The notes under the pieces: generated by a model
The model's database searches: none
What the model was told of the DNA's origin: nothing
The model's input: the letters and a program-made list of their open reading frames with translations, nothing else
Assembly (NCBI GenBank): GCA_023485545.1
Contig: JAMCZI010000005.1
Location: forward strand, 967-64,966
Source of the DNA: Candidatus Marsarchaeota archaeon
GTDB taxonomy: Archaea; Micrarchaeota; Micrarchaeia; Micrarchaeales; Micrarchaeaceae
Reading direction: 5' to 3'
Length of the DNA: 64,000 nt
Translations under genes and position numbers: made by a program
Part shown: positions 3,153 through 48,694 of the stretch, one piece after another
Layout of the letters: each line of letters starts with the position of its first letter
Numbering within the stretch: position 1 is the first letter of the stretch

Positions 3153-3155
3153 GCA

Positions 3156-14660: not shown

Positions 14661-14694
14661 TTTAAATATGTATTTAACTAAATATATATTTATT
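14661..14694 (+). promoter_or_regulatory. A/T-rich promoter region with TATA-like boxes upstream of the T4SS-like operon
   Basis: TTTAAATA at 14661..14668 and AAATATATATTTATT at 14680..14694. An AGGTG Shine-Dalgarno-like element at 14703..14707 lies 7 nt before ATG 14715. Confidence 0.4.
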
Positions 14695-14714
14695 TGAGTA
14701 TAAGGTGTATTACG

Positions 14715-15059
14715 ATGCAGAATAAACAAATCCGAAGTGCATTCTATCCCGTCCTTACGGCAGCTCTTTTCGCTGCAGTCCCTTTCAGCACAACAATTCT
14801 CACTGTGCTCTCAGAATTGCAGTACATACGTGGCGTTTTATACCAAGTGGGCCCTGCACTGAGTGCAGTCTTATTCATTATAGCCGGAATATTCTATGCA
14901 GTAGGGCAGATGTTACCGCCTGACAAGCGAGCCAATTTTCACACGACCGCCATAAACATAATAATAGGTGCGATAATAGTCGCGGTGCTGAGTTTCACTA
15001 GCACCTCTTTGGCAATAGCATCAACACACCTTCTTTCGAACTTTACAAATTCCTCTTGA
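14715..15059 (+). CDS. Small membrane protein with VirB2/TrbC/CedA1-like pilin architecture (candidate)
   Basis: Track ORF 14694..15059; ATG 14715 preferred because it is preceded by AGGTG. Layout: basic n-region MQNKQIRS, hydrophobic signal-like AFYPVLTAALFAAVPF, helix LSELQYIRGVLYQVGPALSAVLFIIAGIFYAVGQML, basic loop PPDKRANFH, then second hydrophobic helix TAINIIIGAIIVAVLSF. Confidence 0.5.
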   Translation: MQNKQIRSAFYPVLTAALFAAVPFSTTILTVLSELQYIRGVLYQVGPALSAVLFIIAGIFYAVGQMLPPDKRANFHTTAINIIIGAIIVAVLSFTSTSLAIASTHLLSNFTNSS

Positions 15060-17900: not shown

Positions 17901-18500
17901 GTGTCAGCAGTGAAGTTAGGTGTAACTTACACCTCCGACAGGAAAGCCATAATCAAAGCATTGTCCACAATTCCCTGTCTCAAGATATTGGATAAAGGGA
18001 CAATAATGAGATACTCAATTGCCGAATCTAATGAACGCGTAAAGCGTACAATTGAGCTAGGCAACGTGATTAGGGTAGTTGCAGAGTACAGCGATTATAA
18101 TCTACTGAGGCAGATAAGAATTAAATCACTGATTTATGCGTTGTCTATTGCATCATTTCTATCAGATTATATTAAAATAGACGTTTCTTCAGCATACTCC
18201 GAAATATTGGATCTTATGTTGCCTGAGATCATGCGCAACGATCAAATATCCACGGATAATAAGGATACTGTACTGCAAGAAGTATCTAAATCAAATTTTA
18301 TCCTATCGCAAAAACTTGTAGAAGCGGTTTCGCTTTTCGAAGCAGCTGAACAAAAAGCAAGCATGCTGCATTCTGCAACCATAAAGCTTTACGGCTGGCT
18401 GCAAAAGAACGTAAGCCAAACAGGCCAGAATGCACCAGCAGATACAAATGCTGCAGGCCTCTCAGATGAAGAGTTGGAACTAGTATTGGGTGGCTTATAA
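17901..18500 (+). CDS. Hypothetical soluble protein of the cluster
   Basis: 199-aa ORF (GTG start) with an acidic C-terminus DEELELVLGGL and no recognisable motif. Coding status is inferred from operon context and tight spacing. Confidence 0.45.
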   Translation: MSAVKLGVTYTSDRKAIIKALSTIPCLKILDKGTIMRYSIAESNERVKRTIELGNVIRVVAEYSDYNLLRQIRIKSLIYALSIASFLSDYIKIDVSSAYSEILDLMLPEIMRNDQISTDNKDTVLQEVSKSNFILSQKLVEAVSLFEAAEQKASMLHSATIKLYGWLQKNVSQTGQNAPADTNAAGLSDEELELVLGGL

Positions 18501-18502
18501 AA

Positions 18503-19357
18503 ATGAACAGCGTTAGGTTACTTATTGTTGTATGGGCGATAGGTGCCTTATCAATAGCCGCCATAATATATGCAAATGGCAATCTTTCAATAAGGTGCCA
18601 ACTTGTATGTCCCTCTTCTATACACCGCTCTGGTAACGCTATAACTTTTAGGCTGCCACGCATTGGTAATGCATCTCAAGTAAAAACCTTGACATTACTA
18701 TATTCTGGCGGCGCAATAATTCTAAACCCAAACAAAAGCGGCGTGTTTGGACTAAAATCTCCAGAATCGCCAGGAGTATATAGTGCTAACCTGTCTTACG
18801 CTGGCGCTAATCTTTTCTCAATATCCTTTGCATACCTTGGGGGCTTAGAATACATACCGTATGTACTGATTGGCGTGTCAATCTTTGCATCAATCGCTTC
18901 AATCTCGGAATATGTATCATCCCTTTCGGATTTTGAATTTTATGTTGGGGATTCGGTATACGATAACGTCGCCCCCTACTCATCCAATGAAATCGAGATT
19001 GAGAGAGCTATCGATATCATAAGGCTAAGGAAATCATCAAAACACGAAAAAATAGGATTTTCAGAACTTCTATTCATGATGCGTGGGATGCATGATTTTC
19101 GTGTTTCACCAAGTGAAGAAATTGTTAGGTACATGATATCCTCTGCAGAAGACAAACACATATGCGATAACTACGACAGACAACCTTCATTTAATTATGG
19201 TGAACTTTATTACGTCATTAAAGAGAGATGTCCTACAACAAATTTTAAACTAATATCTGGTCTTAAAATCCAAGAAGGAAGGAAGCGTTTCCCTAAACAC
19301 AGGCTCCTGTCAACTAGAGTAATTGCAATGATAAATGAAGGTGCCGCGAATGCTTGA
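18503..19357 (+). CDS. Two-TM membrane protein with ~90-aa external domain and ~140-aa C-terminal domain (unknown function)
   Basis: 284 aa starting 2 nt after the previous stop. N-terminal TM LLIVVWAIGALSIAAIIYA and second TM YIPYVLIGVSIFASIASI. Confidence 0.5.
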   Translation: MNSVRLLIVVWAIGALSIAAIIYANGNLSIRCQLVCPSSIHRSGNAITFRLPRIGNASQVKTLTLLYSGGAIILNPNKSGVFGLKSPESPGVYSANLSYAGANLFSISFAYLGGLEYIPYVLIGVSIFASIASISEYVSSLSDFEFYVGDSVYDNVAPYSSNEIEIERAIDIIRLRKSSKHEKIGFSELLFMMRGMHDFRVSPSEEIVRYMISSAEDKHICDNYDRQPSFNYGELYYVIKERCPTTNFKLISGLKIQEGRKRFPKHRLLSTRVIAMINEGAANA

Positions 19358-19538
19358 ACTAGGCAGATACGTAATCAAATCCGCTTTTGTGGTTTCAATG
19401 TTGTCCTTGATAACCTCAATTATAGTATACTCAGTTTCGCTTTCATCAAATGACAAGATTATTAGAAGAATATCAATAAGCATGTCGATTAGTGTGGCAC
19501 TGCTACTCTTCTTTATATTTGCGTACTACCTGGTGTGA
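19350..19538 (+). CDS. Small 2-TM membrane protein (VirB3/CedA2-like size class; speculative)
   Basis: Track ORF 19335..19538. ATG 19350 is preceded by AGGTG (19338..19342). Two hydrophobic segments flank SSNDKIIRR. Confidence 0.4.
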   Translation: MLELGRYVIKSAFVVSMLSLITSIIVYSVSLSSNDKIIRRISISMSISVALLLFFIFAYYLV

Positions 19539-19540
19539 AA

Positions 19541-19834
19541 ATGTTGGATATGGTGAGAAGATTTTATGGAAAACCGAAGGCAAGCGATAATATGCTACTG
19601 CCAGCCTGTTCGGCAATTATTGCATGGGCTTTAGCTTATACTGTGATGCCAGGCAAAGGTATGGCACCTACCTTATTTGATTTTATGCCTCCGGCAGCGA
19701 TATCGATTCCGCTATACGCATATTTGAACATAAAAAGTATACGCGGCCCAGATTCCCGCATTTTTTCCATTGCACTGTTACTCCTCACGTCTATAGTAGT
19801 AATAGCCGCGGTGATATTCAATGGAACACTATAA
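19541..19834 (+). CDS. Small membrane protein (2-3 TM)
   Basis: Track ORF 19535..19834 (GTG). ATG 19541 is preceded by GGTG. It overlaps the downstream ATPase gene by 14 nt. Confidence 0.4.
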   Translation: MLDMVRRFYGKPKASDNMLLPACSAIIAWALAYTVMPGKGMAPTLFDFMPPAAISIPLYAYLNIKSIRGPDSRIFSIALLLLTSIVVIAAVIFNGTL

Positions 19835-22076
19835 TCGTTCTAACTTTTTAGTAGAATCAGTGCCAAATGCGCAGATTGACATTGCAGGGATGTTGCAGGC
19901 AATAGGTGGCCGCACATTTTGCTTAATCCACGATTTTTTAGAAAGGCGAACGTATATTGAATTTTATTGCGATGACGTCGACCAAAGCACGACCATAATT
20001 AAAAAAATTGTACCTGGAATCTCACTTTCCCATGCAGATGTAATTACGATTGGAGAAATGCGTACAAAAGTCCTGTGCCTTTACAAGCAACCCTCTGGTA
20101 CCAGCTTCTTTAGCGAGTCGTTTTCATACTTAAGCTCTTCGAAGCTTTTCGTCTTTTTTATACCAGTGGATCAGATAGCGCTGCACTTGCGTAAGACTGA
20201 AATCGGAAAGCTGTTAAGCAAGGTAGAAGAAAAAGGAACATCTTCCGTGGCTGGCTCTGTGTTCAGTAAGCAGATAAGCACATCTTTACACACTGGCAAC
20301 TATAATGGTAGAGAAGAAGTTGAAATTCTTCGGACTATATTAGAATCTCTAGAAAATTCAATTATGAATGGATTGCCTGCATACAAGGTATATGCCTGCT
20401 TTGACAGCAGAGAGAAATCCATCCTAAATTATGTATCATCAAACTATGCCATAATAAGCAGCTTTGAGTTTGATTCGAGAGGTGATGATGCCCTGCTTCA
20501 TGAACTCGAGAAGTTCAATAGCCTTCCATTCGGGCTTCAATATTCAAAAAACTTCATCTCATTTCCGGTATCTCAAATAAAATACGTAGCTAAGACTGCC
20601 CCTCCTGCTACTTCGGGCAGAATATTGCTTGGCGAGTATGTCAGCAATGGTGCATTCCCAACTGGCGTAGCTGTGCATACTGAAGCCTCAGCATTAAATC
20701 TTGGACTGATCGTTACTGGTATGCCAGGTACGGGGAAGACCTCAGCTGTAATGAATATATTAGAGAGCGTAAGTAGGAATTCCGATGCCAGGATAATCAT
20801 AATATCTCCAACAAGAGAGTGGCGGAAATTTGGGGAGTTGGTAAAGGCAGATGTAATCGACTTGAATAATCCCTCATTAAGGATGAACCTATTCGGTTGC
20901 CCTGACGGATGCTCGGTTTCAAAGTTCTATGAGAACCTTGCCATGGTGCTTTCGCACGCCTCTGCAGCCGGCCCTTACCAGAAACCGCTTGAGAAATGCC
21001 TGCTTGATGCTTTTGAAGGCTTCAAGGATACGAACAATCCAGATCCACTAGAAGTATACAATGCAATAGAAGATTCAGTAATAAGACTGCACGGCAAGAG
21101 GACAAATACTGGCGTAAAGTATACAAAACATGGAGAGAACATCCATTCTGCAGTGGAAGATTTGCGGTTAGTACTAAGGCGCACACAGTTCAGGTCCAGA
21201 GCTGGAGTGGATATATACAATTCACCGAGCCGAAACATTATATTTGACATATCATCGTACGGCTCTCTTGCTATGAGCTACCTATACGCTGTAATACTAA
21301 ATCAGATATATTCGATAGCCGATTCAATGGATGAAATTGGAGAGGACAAGCTCCGATTGGTAGTTTGCCTTGAGGAGGCGCAATTGATATTCGGAGAAAG
21401 ATCGAAGGAGAATGATGCAGCTTTGCGCGATATAAAGAACAGGATACAGGATTTTCGCAAGAAGGGAATCGGATTGGTACTCATAACGCACAATGTATCC
21501 GATATAAATTCCGGAGTGCGTAGCATGTGCCAAACGAAAGCGTACTTCAAGCAAGCGCCTTCAGAGGCGGATAAAGCTGCTTCAGACTTGGTATTCTCTT
21601 TTTCGGAGAAGGAGAGCATAATCACAATGCTGACGCACCTTGAAAAAAGGGTCTTTGCACTTAATTATGTATTAAAACAAGAAGGTAATATGATAACTCC
21701 AGATTCTATATTCGTAAGATCCTTAGATTCATCATTCTCTAGAGTTTCTAAGCATGCGGATTCATCGGTGCCGTTTAAAGCAGTTTCAGAGGAACAGCTT
21801 ATAGAGTGCAGCATCTCATTAGCTTTTGACCCCGATAACACTGCCAAGCATAAAGGTGCTGAAGATCAAATAATTCCTGTCATCGTAGATTTCGGTATCG
21901 AGATTAAATGCGCACGGCAAATCGGAAATTCATACGCTGTAAGGCTTTATAAGCTGCAACGCTATTGGCTCTCTCTGCGCAATAGGAAAGGCGTAGAACT
22001 TTACGGTTCGTACATTCTCGCTGCAAAGCAAGTAACAGCCAGACTGGGCCAGTCCGGTATGGAAATCATTTACTGA
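19821..22076 (+). CDS. Large P-loop ATPase, HerA/FtsK/VirB4-VirD4 superfamily, with ~280-aa N-terminal domain
   Basis: 751 aa. Walker A LIVTGMPGTGKTS, Walker B RLVVCLEEAQLIF, then KKGIGLVLITHNVSDI. No TM segment of its own. Confidence 0.7.
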   Translation: MEHYNRSNFLVESVPNAQIDIAGMLQAIGGRTFCLIHDFLERRTYIEFYCDDVDQSTTIIKKIVPGISLSHADVITIGEMRTKVLCLYKQPSGTSFFSESFSYLSSSKLFVFFIPVDQIALHLRKTEIGKLLSKVEEKGTSSVAGSVFSKQISTSLHTGNYNGREEVEILRTILESLENSIMNGLPAYKVYACFDSREKSILNYVSSNYAIISSFEFDSRGDDALLHELEKFNSLPFGLQYSKNFISFPVSQIKYVAKTAPPATSGRILLGEYVSNGAFPTGVAVHTEASALNLGLIVTGMPGTGKTSAVMNILESVSRNSDARIIIISPTREWRKFGELVKADVIDLNNPSLRMNLFGCPDGCSVSKFYENLAMVLSHASAAGPYQKPLEKCLLDAFEGFKDTNNPDPLEVYNAIEDSVIRLHGKRTNTGVKYTKHGENIHSAVEDLRLVLRRTQFRSRAGVDIYNSPSRNIIFDISSYGSLAMSYLYAVILNQIYSIADSMDEIGEDKLRLVVCLEEAQLIFGERSKENDAALRDIKNRIQDFRKKGIGLVLITHNVSDINSGVRSMCQTKAYFKQAPSEADKAASDLVFSFSEKESIITMLTHLEKRVFALNYVLKQEGNMITPDSIFVRSLDSSFSRVSKHADSSVPFKAVSEEQLIECSISLAFDPDNTAKHKGAEDQIIPVIVDFGIEIKCARQIGNSYAVRLYKLQRYWLSLRNRKGVELYGSYILAAKQVTARLGQSGMEIIY

Positions 22077-23439
22077 TCAGGTACTCGCTTATGCGCTTCT
22101 GCATCATTATGTCGCGCAGTATCTTGCAGTTCCTTATCCAGTCTTTCAGCGGTATGTCCATCTTCGACCTTATGAAGCTGAACAGCTCTTCGGATGTGTT
22201 CATCACCACCGGCTTCATCGTGAGCGCTTCTCTGACATGCTCCCTCACATTCCATACGCCTACGGGCATAAGGTAACCCTCATGGACTTCCCTGAGTATC
22301 ATCACGCGCCCCTGTCCATGCATTTCGCTGAGCTTTTCGGTAACAGCAAGCCTTGCGGCATAATAGCATCCCCCTATTTCGGCATATGTCTTCCTTCCCC
22401 TGTACCCTTCATAAGAAGAGTATATCGATATGTCCTTCCCGTTCTCGTTCCACACCGTTTTCGGGTACCACGCCTCCGCTGATTCATATTCCCAGTTGCC
22501 CGGCATGAATATTATGAGCCAGCGATTATCCAGCGATACGTGGTAAAATGCGTAAATTGCATCAAGGCTTTCGAATGATTTTACATCCTTCAGCAAGTTT
22601 TTCGAAAGCGTGTCATCAACAGCTGTTATGCTCCATCTTGTTGGGACGAACTTCCTTGATTTTCCTCTGCCAAGCGTGCCAGCTGAAAGCGCCTGCTGGA
22701 TTTTTGACACTGGAATGTTGTTTTCGTATAGCTCTATGAGCGAAGTAGTGGCAGTTGCATCTGTGTCGCTGTACGCTTTCTCAAGCTTTCTGTCAGCCTT
22801 GACGTTGTAGAGATCCATAGTCTTCATTATGGCGCTTGGCCCAAACGGCTGCACCTCATCGTTGAAGCTCAACTTTACGAATGGTTTCTTGCTAAAATTC
22901 AGCTCTGCTTCCGCCGGCCTCTCTGCAAGTGCAAGATCTCTTACCATCTCCTCCATGCGCCCTTTCTCAACGTTGTCGACTCTTGTGAGGTGCATGCCCC
23001 TGACTAGCTTTGACCTGTAGCTTACTATGCTTGGAATCGAGAGGTTCCTCCACCTCTCCGGTGTCCCGAGTATGGAAGTGTCGCCGAAAGTGGGCGGCAC
23101 CATCGGGCCTATGAATACCTTTGGATAGCCGAACCTTCCTACAAAAACATCAGTTGGAGAAGAACCCGCGAGCTCAAGCTTGTCTGTCGCAGGCATCATC
23201 TTGACCCTGTAGTAATAGCGCAGCAGCGCCGGGTCGCGCATGTGCCTGTACACTATGTCTGATCGCTTGACGCCGGGGCTGGACTCGTTGAGCTCGTTTA
23301 TGAGGTTCTTCCTGGTCTCGCCTCCAAGCATGCAATCACTACCCTTTCTCAATTCAGATTTATAACCATTTTCAGCATCCGAAACAAGCCATTTTCTTGT
23401 AGAGCTGAAAGAAATATACGCATTATCATACAAAACCAA
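22066..23439 (-). CDS. nreA: Archaeal Nre-family DNA repair protein
   Basis: 457 aa. VFVGRFGYPKVFIGPMVPP matches the conserved GYPxVxxGP block of Nre (DUF650/DUF651) proteins. The true start may be the internal MLGGETRK. Confidence 0.7.
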   Translation of the reverse strand: MVLYDNAYISFSSTRKWLVSDAENGYKSELRKGSDCMLGGETRKNLINELNESSPGVKRSDIVYRHMRDPALLRYYYRVKMMPATDKLELAGSSPTDVFVGRFGYPKVFIGPMVPPTFGDTSILGTPERWRNLSIPSIVSYRSKLVRGMHLTRVDNVEKGRMEEMVRDLALAERPAEAELNFSKKPFVKLSFNDEVQPFGPSAIMKTMDLYNVKADRKLEKAYSDTDATATTSLIELYENNIPVSKIQQALSAGTLGRGKSRKFVPTRWSITAVDDTLSKNLLKDVKSFESLDAIYAFYHVSLDNRWLIIFMPGNWEYESAEAWYPKTVWNENGKDISIYSSYEGYRGRKTYAEIGGCYYAARLAVTEKLSEMHGQGRVMILREVHEGYLMPVGVWNVREHVREALTMKPVVMNTSEELFSFIRSKMDIPLKDWIRNCKILRDIMMQKRISEYLISK

Positions 23440-23441
23440 TC

Positions 23442-24539
23442 ATGGAAATAGACGGATACATAAAGAGAAGGCTCAAGTCTCTGTTTAGCGATTCTGGGCT
23501 TGACGCTGTATTAATAATGAATACAGCAACAAAAGACAGCAATTTCACATACATGACGGATTTTTCTAGCGGCGTTTTCGAGGATACAATCCTTCTTCTC
23601 TTTCCAGATGGGGAAAAATTGCTTGTAAATAAGCTGGAGCGGGAGATAGCGCTGGAATCAGCACCAAAAGTTATGGAAGTTGTAAGCGCAGACACCTCTG
23701 AGGAGCTTGCCTCACATCTTAAAAAGGACCTTAAAGGGCTGAATGTCGGCTTTAATGCGAAATTCCTGCCCTATTCGTACTATGCTGCAATAAGGAAGCT
23801 AGCAAAGCCGAAGCGCATGGTAGATGTCGGCAAGTTCTTCTCAAAGCTCAGGACAGTAAAGGATGAGTATGAGATAAGCAGGATAAGGAAGGCGAATTCG
23901 ATTGCAAAGCGTGCTTTCAGCGAGATACCCACATATTTTTCGGCAGGGATTACGGAGAGGCAGCTCGCTGCCAAGTTCGATAGCCTTATGCTCGATGCAG
24001 GAGCTACCTCGCCATCTTTCGACACAATAATATGCTTTGGCAAGAATTCGGCCCTGCCGCACCACTCACCCGACAATTCAAAACTCAGGGAGAACAGCAT
24101 AATACTGATTGACGCGGGAGCAAAGTGGGCCAACTACTGCTCCGATCTAACCAAGAGTTTCTTCTTCAAGCCCCAGAAAGCCAGCCCCACATATGCTGGG
24201 TTTGAGGAGATGTATTCGGTTGTAGAGGAGGCGCAGGCAGAAGCATTGGCGGCGATAAAGGCGGGAGCAGCAGCGTCTTCGCCTCACATAACTGCGGAGA
24301 ACGTCATAGATAAAGCATATGGTGGCAAATATGCAGGCAAGTTCATACATGCACTAGGCCATTCAATAGGGATAGAGGTGCACGACGAGTCAATGATATC
24401 CCTATCCCCCCGCTCAAAGGAAATTTTATCAAAAGGAATGGTATTCAGCGACGAGCCTGGCATATACGTGGTTGGAAAGGGAGGCGTGCGTCTCGAGGAA
24501 GATGTCCTTGTCGGGAGCGGAAGCTCATCCATCCTTTAA
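23442..24539 (+). CDS. pepQ: M24B family Xaa-Pro dipeptidase/aminopeptidase
   Basis: Pita-bread metal-ligand contexts LIDAGAKWANYCSDLT, HALGHSIGIEVHD, SDEPGIY and VRLEEDVLV. Confidence 0.8.
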   Translation: MEIDGYIKRRLKSLFSDSGLDAVLIMNTATKDSNFTYMTDFSSGVFEDTILLLFPDGEKLLVNKLEREIALESAPKVMEVVSADTSEELASHLKKDLKGLNVGFNAKFLPYSYYAAIRKLAKPKRMVDVGKFFSKLRTVKDEYEISRIRKANSIAKRAFSEIPTYFSAGITERQLAAKFDSLMLDAGATSPSFDTIICFGKNSALPHHSPDNSKLRENSIILIDAGAKWANYCSDLTKSFFFKPQKASPTYAGFEEMYSVVEEAQAEALAAIKAGAAASSPHITAENVIDKAYGGKYAGKFIHALGHSIGIEVHDESMISLSPRSKEILSKGMVFSDEPGIYVVGKGGVRLEEDVLVGSGSSSIL

Positions 24540-48596: not shown

Positions 48597-48694
48597 AGCC
48601 TCAGGAGGGATTTGAACCCCCGGCCTTCTGCTTTGTGGCATCCCTAAGCCGGGATTTACCATGCAGACGCTCTGCCATGCTGAGCTACTGAGGC
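48597..48694 (-). tRNA. tRNA-Thr (anticodon GGU) with 24-nt intron at the canonical 37/38 position
   Basis: Reverse complement: GCCTCAG TA GCTC AGCATGGCA GAGC G TCTGC ATGGTA[AATCCCGGCTTAGGGATGCCACAA]A GCAGA AGGCC GGGGG TTCAAAT CCCTC CTGAGGC T. Intron is about 48633..48656. Confidence 0.8.

Follow-up and report, generated by a model that had tools for sequence, protein, structure and literature searches.

Pilins of the VirB2/TrbC/T4SS_pilin superfamily, the only one whose members are known to build hollow conduits of protein and lipid for nucleic acids, belong to type IV secretion systems (T4SSs), with TrwL of plasmid R388 and VirB2 of the Ti plasmid as examples. Domesticated, chromosomal, T4SS-derived machinery has been described in Crenarchaeota as the Ced (CedA1/CedA/CedB/CedD) and Ted (TedC/TedA/TedB) systems, in which a pilin gene is followed by the gene for a polytopic protein with five to seven transmembrane (TM) segments and HerA/VirB4-class ATPases are encoded nearby (PMC9905601). 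In the Patescibacteria (candidate phyla radiation, CPR), chromosomal T4SSs with PF18895 pilins are proposed to have been co-opted for host interaction, not conjugation (PMC12102498). Here we analyze a 64,000-nucleotide (nt) stretch of archaeal contig JAMCZI010000005.1 (the window), in which a gene designated g1, annotated in GenBank only as a "hypothetical protein," heads an operon of nine genes (g1–g9). We propose that the product of g1 is probably the pilin subunit of a T4SS-derived apparatus that is fixed in the chromosome and conserved across Micrarchaeota.

The physical means by which DPANN archaea and their hosts exchange material are still to be established. Connections described as "pili-like" or "filamentous" have been imaged between ARMAN cells and Thermoplasmatales without identification of their molecules (PMC5498576), and the proteins of the proteinaceous nanotubes imaged in another DPANN co-culture, which were attributed to the host, are likewise not identified (PMC11329633). 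The genome paper for Mancarchaeum lists type IV pili only (PMC5498576). A full-text literature search found no paper combining Micrarchaeota and VirB2; subscription literature lay outside that search, so an earlier mention is possible. Papers on Micrarchaeota and "type IV secretion" do not, to judge by their titles and abstracts, describe the operon. Many g1 homologs already bear precomputed PF18895 or PF04956 labels; what is new is the proposal that a Micrarchaeota-wide operon is a variant of the Ced/Ted/Patescibacteria-type T4SS-derived systems, with one pilin, which is ultra-conserved, and two ATPases specific to the lineage.

Similarity of g1 to VirB2/TrbC-type Pilins

Among 24,736 Pfam models, the two best matches of the g1 product were PF18895 (T4SS_pilin; E = 1e-4, 22.7 bits, 84% of the model) and PF04956 (TrbC/VirB2; E = 0.0028, 18.3 bits). 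At E ≤ 0.01, PF18895 recurred in 37 of 38 family members and PF04956 in 20 of 38, and any other Pfam family in no more than three. The PF18895 match lies within the thresholds by which VirB2-like pilins were recognized in Patescibacteria (independent E-value below 0.001 with over 50% of the model covered; PMC12102498). A reverse HMMER search of 1.84 billion representative proteins with the family profile gave 63 matches at E ≤ 1e-3, and the 49 distant ones included 16 members of PF18895 (best E = 4.6e-32) and 13 of PF04956 (best E = 3.2e-24). These distant matches share the in-register motif L-x-x-I-x-P…AG-x-x-YA-x-GQ…(A/P)(E/D)-x-(R/K)-A-(K/N).

Two profiles were used for comparison with plasmid-borne pilins: a narrow one from 38 Micrarchaeota family sequences (alignment A1), and a broadened one to which distant relatives had been added (A3). 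Searched against 177,635 sequences of the PDB, the broadened profile found TrwL, the VirB2 pilin of R388 (8s6h), with E = 0.0053, the sole match below E = 0.5. Its hhalign comparison with a TrwL family assembled from the trwL/virB2 genes of R388 and five related plasmids yielded a probability of 93.4% (E = 2.5e-7) over 77 columns, reaching from the end of the leader into helix alpha3 and following the expected alpha1-alpha2-loop-alpha3 register. The G-x-x-Y-A-x-G(Q) motif, the loop, and the basic residues fell in register in these alignments, including the comparison with TrwL. The Pfam matches, the reverse profile search, and the TrwL matches thus support the original prediction of a VirB2/TrbC-type pilin as a statement of homology. 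By sequence, g1 appears to be a divergent addition to the VirB2/TrbC/T4SS_pilin superfamily, distantly related to its known members and connected to them through intermediates.

Several results weigh against this assignment. The Pfam scores of g1 itself are below the gathering scores (22.7 against 26.6 bits for PF18895 and 18.3 against 27.9 bits for PF04956). The narrow profile found no match among the PDB sequences, and its hhalign comparison with the TrwL family, in the right register, was not significant (E = 0.05, probability 1%); the homology therefore rests on the intermediate sequences. A Foldseek search of the g1 monomer model against the PDB returned generic hairpins (chemoreceptors, ATP-synthase c subunits, and Esx proteins), all with E > 0.3, and no pilus subunit was among them. 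Because the fold is so simple and the model includes the leader helix, we regard this last result as uninformative rather than negative.

With sub-threshold matches to models that are themselves short and hydrophobic, the resemblance might be coincidental, the Pfam matches reflecting hydrophobic composition in an ordinary two-TM protein such as a transporter subunit or a component of a HerA-associated defence module; the operon ATPases do match the HerA and mad8 defence models. We consider this highly improbable. Both superfamily models head the entire Pfam ranking and one of them recurs in nearly every family member, TrwL stands alone among the PDB matches, the shared motif keeps its register, and the PADLOC defence-system models matched no operon gene other than the ATPases. 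No unrelated small membrane protein family, which the original prediction had named as a finding that would tell against it, scored comparably, and the other such finding, a predicted topology with both helices as ordinary TM anchors of a non-filament protein, did not emerge either.

Predicted Architecture and Conservation of the Pilin Precursor

Translation of positions 14715–15059 gives a 114-residue product identical to the one originally described, and its division into a leader, a helix, a basic loop, and a second helix is borne out by an AlphaFold2 (AF2) model computed on the 38-sequence alignment (mean predicted local distance difference test score, pLDDT, of 85.6). In the model a leader helix (residues 4–21, pLDDT 63–71) is followed by a helix from 24 to 65, a turn at 66–68, and a helix from 69 to 113, with pLDDT values of 87–97 across the core. 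The same succession of leader, alpha1-alpha2, short basic loop, and alpha3 is found in TrwL and the Ti plasmid VirB2, as is a mature size of about 87–90 amino acids (aa). The protein does not resemble a type IV pilin with a class III signal peptide, since the AF2 model shows a hairpin made of helices throughout and lacks a globular domain, and there was no Pfam match related to type IV pili.

Alignment A1 has 28 invariant columns, which cluster at the end of alpha2, in the loop, and at the start of alpha3. They include Gly-46, Pro-47, Ala-57, Gly-58, Phe-60, Tyr-61, Ala-62, Gly-64, and Gln-65 in helix alpha1-alpha2; Pro-69, Lys-71, Ala-73, Phe-75, and His-76 in the loop; and Asn-81, Ile-84, Gly-85, Ala-86, Leu-92, Ser-93, Ser-103, and His-105 in alpha3. 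The inter-helix loop holds the only basic cluster. By analogy with solved conjugative pili (PMC9905601), it would be directed toward the cytoplasm while subunits are stored in the membrane and toward the lumen in a pilus. Asn-109, also invariant, begins an N-x-S/T sequon. At least one sequon lies within the last 25 residues of 118 of the 120 homologs, most of which have two, and N-glycosylation of the C terminus at the Asn-109 sequon is predicted from this pattern. Such a conserved C-terminal sequon sets the family apart from VirB2/TrbC pilins.

The leader is the sole poorly conserved part of the family in A1, varying in both length and sequence. A small-x-small site of the signal-peptidase type is present in 100 of 120 homologs, whereas the window protein (leader …AAVPFSTTILTVLS) and its closest relatives (…AVPFSTTILTVLS) have none, which counts further against the pilin assignment. 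A signal peptide is therefore plausible for this segment, but cleavage in the window lineage is uncertain. CedA1 is a known example of an unprocessed pilin (PMC9905601).

An in-frame TTG at 14694 could extend the protein by seven residues. We take ATG 14715 as the likely start because of its spacing from the AAGGTG motif upstream (Table 1) and because the closest homologs begin with MQNK or MQTN. The 150-nt spacer upstream of g1 is AT-rich with TATA-box-like motifs and may be an archaeal promoter.

The g1–g9 Operon and Its Partner Proteins

As originally predicted, g1 is the first gene of an operon, a position that trwL also has in R388. The nine genes lie on one strand between 14715 and 22076, with neighbors separated by up to 25 nt or overlapping by up to 35 nt, and 9 nt between g1 and g2 (Table 1). 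When the operon proteins of the window were compared by tblastn with 82 related loci, the pilin was matched in all 82, g2 directly downstream of it in 81, and the g4 ATPase in 77; the g9 ATPase was matched in 42, many contigs ending before its position. In the 42 loci where all anchors are present, open reading frame maps reveal the same gene order and sizes with few exceptions; the complete genome of Mancarchaeum acidiphilum is among those with the nine-gene order.

Table 1. Positions in the window of the g1–g9 genes, of the segments of the predicted g1 pilin, and of the signals upstream
Feature	Description	Position	Strand	Evidence
Promoter-like region	Putative, AT-rich; TATA-box-like TTTAAATA at 14661–14668 and ATATATATT at ~14682–14690	14661–14692	+	Sequence
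Shine-Dalgarno-like motif	AAGGTG, 7 nt 5' of ATG 14715	14702–14707	+	Sequence
g1	Predicted VirB2/T4SS_pilin-like pilin precursor, 114 aa + stop; orthologs in 42 loci 110–200 aa, mostly 120–140	14715–15059	+	Translation, Pfam, PDB profile match, hhalign, AF2
g1 leader	Residues 1–~27, variable N terminus; basic n-region and hydrophobic core, no canonical small-x-small site in window lineage	14715–14795	+	Alignment A1
g1 helix alpha1-alpha2	Residues 24–65; amphipathic N-terminal half, G46-P47, hydrophobic half	14784–14909	+	AF2, alignment A1
g1 basic loop	Residues 68–76, PPDKRANFH	14916–14942	+	Alignment A1; AF2 turn 66–68
g1 helix alpha3	Residues 69–113, hydrophobic	14919–15053	+	AF2, alignment A1
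g1 C-terminal tail	Two N-x-S/T sequons, N109-F-T and N112-S-S	15039–15056	+	Alignment A1, homolog sequon count
g2	Polytopic protein, 346 aa, ~6–7 TM; orthologs ~345 aa	15069–16109	+	Hydropathy, synteny, AF2
g3	225 aa, no recognized fold; orthologs ~240 aa	16087–16764	+	Alignment A8
g4	HerA/VirB4/CedB-class P-loop ATPase, 381 aa, ATPase domain only; orthologs ~350–465 aa	16730–17875	+	Pfam, NCBIfam, PDB
g5	Soluble protein, 199 aa; orthologs 175–260 aa, mostly 205–235	17901–18500	+	No TM segment
g6	Membrane-anchored, length-variable protein, 284 aa; orthologs ~130–350 aa	18503–19357	+	Hydropathy, operon maps
g7	Two-TM protein, 67 aa; orthologs ~45–82 aa in most of 42 loci	19335–19538	+	Hydropathy
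g8	Small membrane protein, 99 aa; orthologs ~95 aa	19535–19834	+	Hydropathy, alignment A10
g9	ATPase, paralog of g4, 751 aa; ~290-aa N-terminal domain with no recognized fold; orthologs 660–820 aa, mostly 720–800	19821–22076	+	

A pilin gene followed by the gene for a polytopic protein, together with one or two HerA/VirB4-class ATPases, gives the system the logic of Ced and Ted. The pair of paralogous ATPases recalls CedB and CedD (10.1101/2024.09.27.615246), and as in Ced and Ted there are neither outer-membrane components nor a relaxase. CedA1 and TedC have no recognizable sequence similarity even to each other (PMC9905601). There is no demonstrable sequence or structural match of the operon proteins to CedA1, TedC, CedA, or TedA, to which they are likened by gene layout, the sequences not having been compared. 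Further differences from Ced and Ted are ATPase scores far below the CedB and CedD cut-offs, the presence of five additional lineage-specific genes (g3 and g5–g8), and the organism itself, a DPANN episymbiont as opposed to a free-living crenarchaeon.

The polytopic g2 may be the counterpart of CedA, TedA, or VirB6, a likeness of position and topology only. It has an extracytoplasmic loop with invariant Cys-86 and Cys-97, its homologs are confined to Micrarchaeota, and it had no Pfam match and no meaningful match among PDB sequences. In a Foldseek search with its AF2 model (pLDDT 77), TrwI/VirB6 of the R388 T4SS ranked 2 and 12, with E-values of 0.38 and 1.0. Beltran et al. observed a pilin resembling the N terminus of a VirB6-like protein; hhalign of the pilin with g2 gave a probability of 0.3% (E = 0.18), which lends that resemblance no support here.

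The ATPase g4 scored above the Pfam gathering scores for DUF87 (HerA-central, 46.2 bits), AAA_10 (31.6 bits), and TrwB_AAD_bind (28.7 bits). The NCBIfam models for CedB, CedD, and anti-phage HerA each matched 29 of 29 members of its family, TraC and VirB4-like CD1110 matched 27 of 29 each, and VirB4_CagE 26 of 29. CedB gave the best E-value (7.8e-22, against 4.2e-20 for CedD), but all of the NCBIfam scores are far below the curated cut-offs, which are 700 bits for CedB and 600 for CedD. In the PDB, HerA-like chains matched g4 with E = 4e-24 and the VirB4 C-terminal domain 4ag5 with E = 7e-13. The g4 proteins fall into two length classes, of about 350–400 aa (the window) and about 435–465 aa (451 aa in Mancarchaeum). 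The second ATPase, g9, was related to the g4 family by hhalign (97.5%) and to a HerA-like chain of the PDB (E = 2.4e-8). Its homologs are all from Micrarchaeota, and the precomputed Pfam annotations of 120 of them do not include the VirB4 N-domain PF03135. We rejected the idea that g9 is a VirB4 of the plasmid type on these grounds and because tblastn found no match to it in 72,556 plasmids.

Results on the partner proteins also speak against a T4SS-derived apparatus. Searches of the operon revealed no canonical VirB4 N-domain (PF03135), no VirB3, no Pfam signature of VirB6, and no relaxase; matches of g4 and g9 to VirB4-like NCBIfam models cover the P-loop region only and are far below cut-off; HerA-like proteins of defence systems give both ATPases scores that are as good or better; and the resemblance of g2 to VirB6 is not significant. 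Of the marks of a canonical conjugative T4SS with its mating-pair formation (MPF) module, the VirB4 signature is missing (g4 and g9 have no PF03135), as are a relaxase and a mobile-element location. Since no canonical VirB4, VirB6, VirB3, or relaxase was detected, we regard the system as divergent, domesticated, and T4SS-derived, closest in its logic to Ced and Ted. Unlike the VirB2/TrbC systems, it is archaeal, chromosomal, and fixed in the phylum, with no VirB3 or VirB4 gene next to the pilin gene and no relaxase nearby.

With the T4SSs of Patescibacteria it shares the best Pfam match of its pilin, a chromosomal location, wide occurrence in ultra-small episymbionts, and the absence of a relaxase. 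The bacterial systems have a recognizable VirB4 of the MPF-FATA type and often VirB6, VirB3, and VirB8 (PMC12102498), whereas the ATPases and the membrane partner in Micrarchaeota are lineage-specific. Patescibacteria also frequently carry arrays of 2–11 highly variable pilin genes (PMC12102498), in contrast to the single, highly conserved pilin gene here. No second pilin copy or array was found in the window, and the small two-TM protein g7 shows no likeness to a pilin (broadened profile, E = 1.5; narrow profile, no match).

The contrast in conservation between the pilin and its partners is another departure from VirB2/TrbC systems. Across loci, median identity to the window proteins is 65% for the pilin, 40% for g2, 30% for g4, and 35% for g9; for the flanking genes Nre and M24 peptidase it is 54% and 42%. 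Identity to the closest genome is 91% for the pilin, 72% for g2, 50% for g4, 53% for g9, 83% for Nre, and 70% for M24. The mature pilin is thus the most conserved protein of the locus, at least as constrained as housekeeping genes, with fast-evolving partners. This suggests that many constraints act on it simultaneously, possibly from subunit packing, lipid binding, and lumen chemistry.

Among the remaining genes, g3 had no PDB or Pfam match. Most of its orthologs (in loci L006, L009, L011, and others) start with some 45 residues that form a two-TM hairpin, which is absent in the window and in L004, the closest genome; in the window the start of g3 already lies within the end of g2, which leaves no space upstream for the hairpin. 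That g3 is a split VirB3 plus VirB4 N-domain is no more than an idea, with no support from the PDB or Pfam. The idea of g8 as VirB3 was dropped, as hhalign found no similarity between them, and g8 had no other match either. Neither g5 nor g6 matched any family.

Chromosomal Fixation of the Operon

The gene for Nre (22066–23439, minus strand) converges on the end of the operon and is followed by an M24 peptidase gene (23442–24539, plus strand). This pair adjoins the operon in 10–12 loci, two of which have Nre alone; the complete genome of Mancarchaeum is one of the loci. Nre is a DNA-repair-associated gene, and Ted loci tend to adjoin DNA-repair genes (PMC9905601).

T4SS-type pilins are classically borne by plasmids or integrated conjugative elements, and Golyshina et al. 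speculated on conjugative elements in genomic islands of Mancarchaeum (PMC5498576). The operon might accordingly be the transfer module of such an element, with the pilin serving the element's self-transfer, and its base composition could be taken in that sense: its GC content is 0.412 (0.33–0.46 at third codon positions), whereas the flanks are at 0.49–0.50 (0.498 and 0.488 over 10 kb on the two sides). In 36 other Micrarchaeota loci, however, the drop is small (median −0.021; negative in 27 of 36), so the 8-point dip is specific to the window lineage; replacement by recombination from a relative of lower GC is one possibility. A Pfam scan found no relaxase or integrase domain in the operon, and no tRNA gene flanks it, the nearest being at 3155 and 35010. 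The lack of plasmid matches to g9 and the retention of the same neighbors, in a complete genome among others, also speak against a mobile element, as does the breadth of the family: when GTDB was scanned with one genome for each species, relatives of g1 turned up in at least 154 species genomes, and the best 80 loci are all from Micrarchaeota. An element with its own transfer functions thus has very little probability. The conserved synteny and the absence of relaxase, integrase, and adjacent tRNA instead argue that the operon is chromosomal and vertically inherited and not a recent mobile element.

Elsewhere in the window, ARAGORN called a tRNA-Phe of 98 nt with anticodon AAA (48597–48694, minus strand). 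Its length is unusual and its anticodon odd, and it may be an intron-containing archaeal tRNA or a mis-call.

Proposed Function of the Pilin

Established knowledge of VirB2-type pili (PMC9905601) suggests how such an apparatus might be built. The precursor would insert into the cytoplasmic membrane with its basic loop (Lys-71, Arg-72, and His-76) in the cytoplasm and both helix ends outside. The leader would then be removed in most lineages, perhaps not in that of the window, and the exposed C-terminal tail would become N-glycosylated at the Asn-109 sequon. With g2 as the platform, g4 and g9 would power the extraction of pilin together with membrane lipid, and the subunits would polymerize into a narrow tube of protein and lipid with the conserved loop lining its hollow interior. 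Such a tube would cross the surface layer (S-layer) and contact another cell, which for these obligate episymbionts is probably a host of the Thermoplasmatales type or a conspecific, and could act as a conduit or docking device for macromolecules, most plausibly in nucleic-acid import as in Ced and Ted. We favor nucleic acid as the cargo because the ATPases are of the HerA/FtsK class and because of the Ced/Ted precedent, and by the same analogy the direction is probably import. It may be speculated that uptake from a host would be attractive for an episymbiont that is without many biosynthetic pathways.

The protein could also be a genuine VirB2 homolog that builds no extended pilus and is instead membrane-resident, or forms a short stalk or a channel collar, in an envelope-spanning translocon that also contains g2 and the ATPases. 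For the comparable chromosomal T4SSs of Patescibacteria, firm evidence of extended VirB2-type pili is lacking (PMC12102498), and a further source goes no further than "may be T4SS pili" (10.64898/2026.06.21.733656). That the pilin is so highly conserved would be consistent, too, with a subunit engaged in many fixed protein contacts, and the operon has one pilin gene and no recognizable tip or adhesin gene. On the other hand, all VirB2-type proteins with a solved assembly form a pilus (PMC9905601), and the TrwL entry 8s6h comprises 69 chains of one sequence. A conserved sequon at an exposed C terminus suits a surface-exposed polymer. Micrarchaeota possess an S-layer, which the structure must cross. 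On balance, a translocon with no extended pilus seems unlikely to us, and a pilus-forming subunit is the reading that we retain.

As a pilin relative heading a conserved membrane/ATPase operon, g1 is a candidate for the filaments that link Micrarchaeota cells to their hosts. That it builds the filamentous connections seen by cryo-ET between ARMAN/Micrarchaeota and wall-less Thermoplasmatales hosts is a tentative idea that we rate as rather doubtful, and any link of the pilin to the imaged connections or nanotubes is speculative. If that idea is correct, a protein-lipid tube present throughout the phylum would let a DPANN symbiont that has neither nucleotide nor lipid synthesis draw nucleic acids or other macromolecules from its host. 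It would be an archaeal counterpart of the Patescibacteria T4SS, independently evolved or horizontally shared, and the constraints that keep the pilin so strongly conserved would come from host membrane lipids and from cargo in the lumen. The operon would extend domesticated T4SS-derived machinery from Crenarchaeota and Patescibacteria to DPANN archaea, which suggests that ultra-small episymbionts recurrently rely on machinery of this kind. The finding further offers an annotation rule for several hundred unannotated proteins and a structural target for filament studies.

Distribution and Distant Relatives

A word-indexed search returned 384 g1 homologs at E ≤ 0.01. Those with names, Mancarchaeum acidiphilum included, are nearly all from Micrarchaeota, Micrarchaeia, or Micrarchaeaceae or from metagenome-assembled genomes (MAGs) labeled "Marsarchaeota," which indicates that the window is a segment of a Micrarchaeota (DPANN) chromosome. 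The operon is flanked by housekeeping genes of archaeal type (aIF5B, nucleoside-diphosphate kinase, Nre, and M24 peptidase). The exact g1 and aIF5B sequences are in GenBank as products of the source MAG, which is from an acid environment and carries the label "Candidatus Marsarchaeota archaeon" (MCL5430753.1, MCL5430750.1); this label looks wrong, since named close homologs of the operon proteins are almost all from Micrarchaeota or from similarly labeled MAGs. A few of the homolog MAGs bear bacterial labels (Acidoferrum).

Some of the distant relatives (P0139, P0142, and P0151) consist of two to four tandem pilin-like domains, some with Cys-rich linkers, and some single-domain ones end in Cys-rich tails. 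Divergent pilin-like genes in an Anstonellaceae MAG and another archaeal contig (L083, 10001–10243, and L084, 10001–10459) stand alone amid housekeeping genes, with no g2 or ATPase partners.

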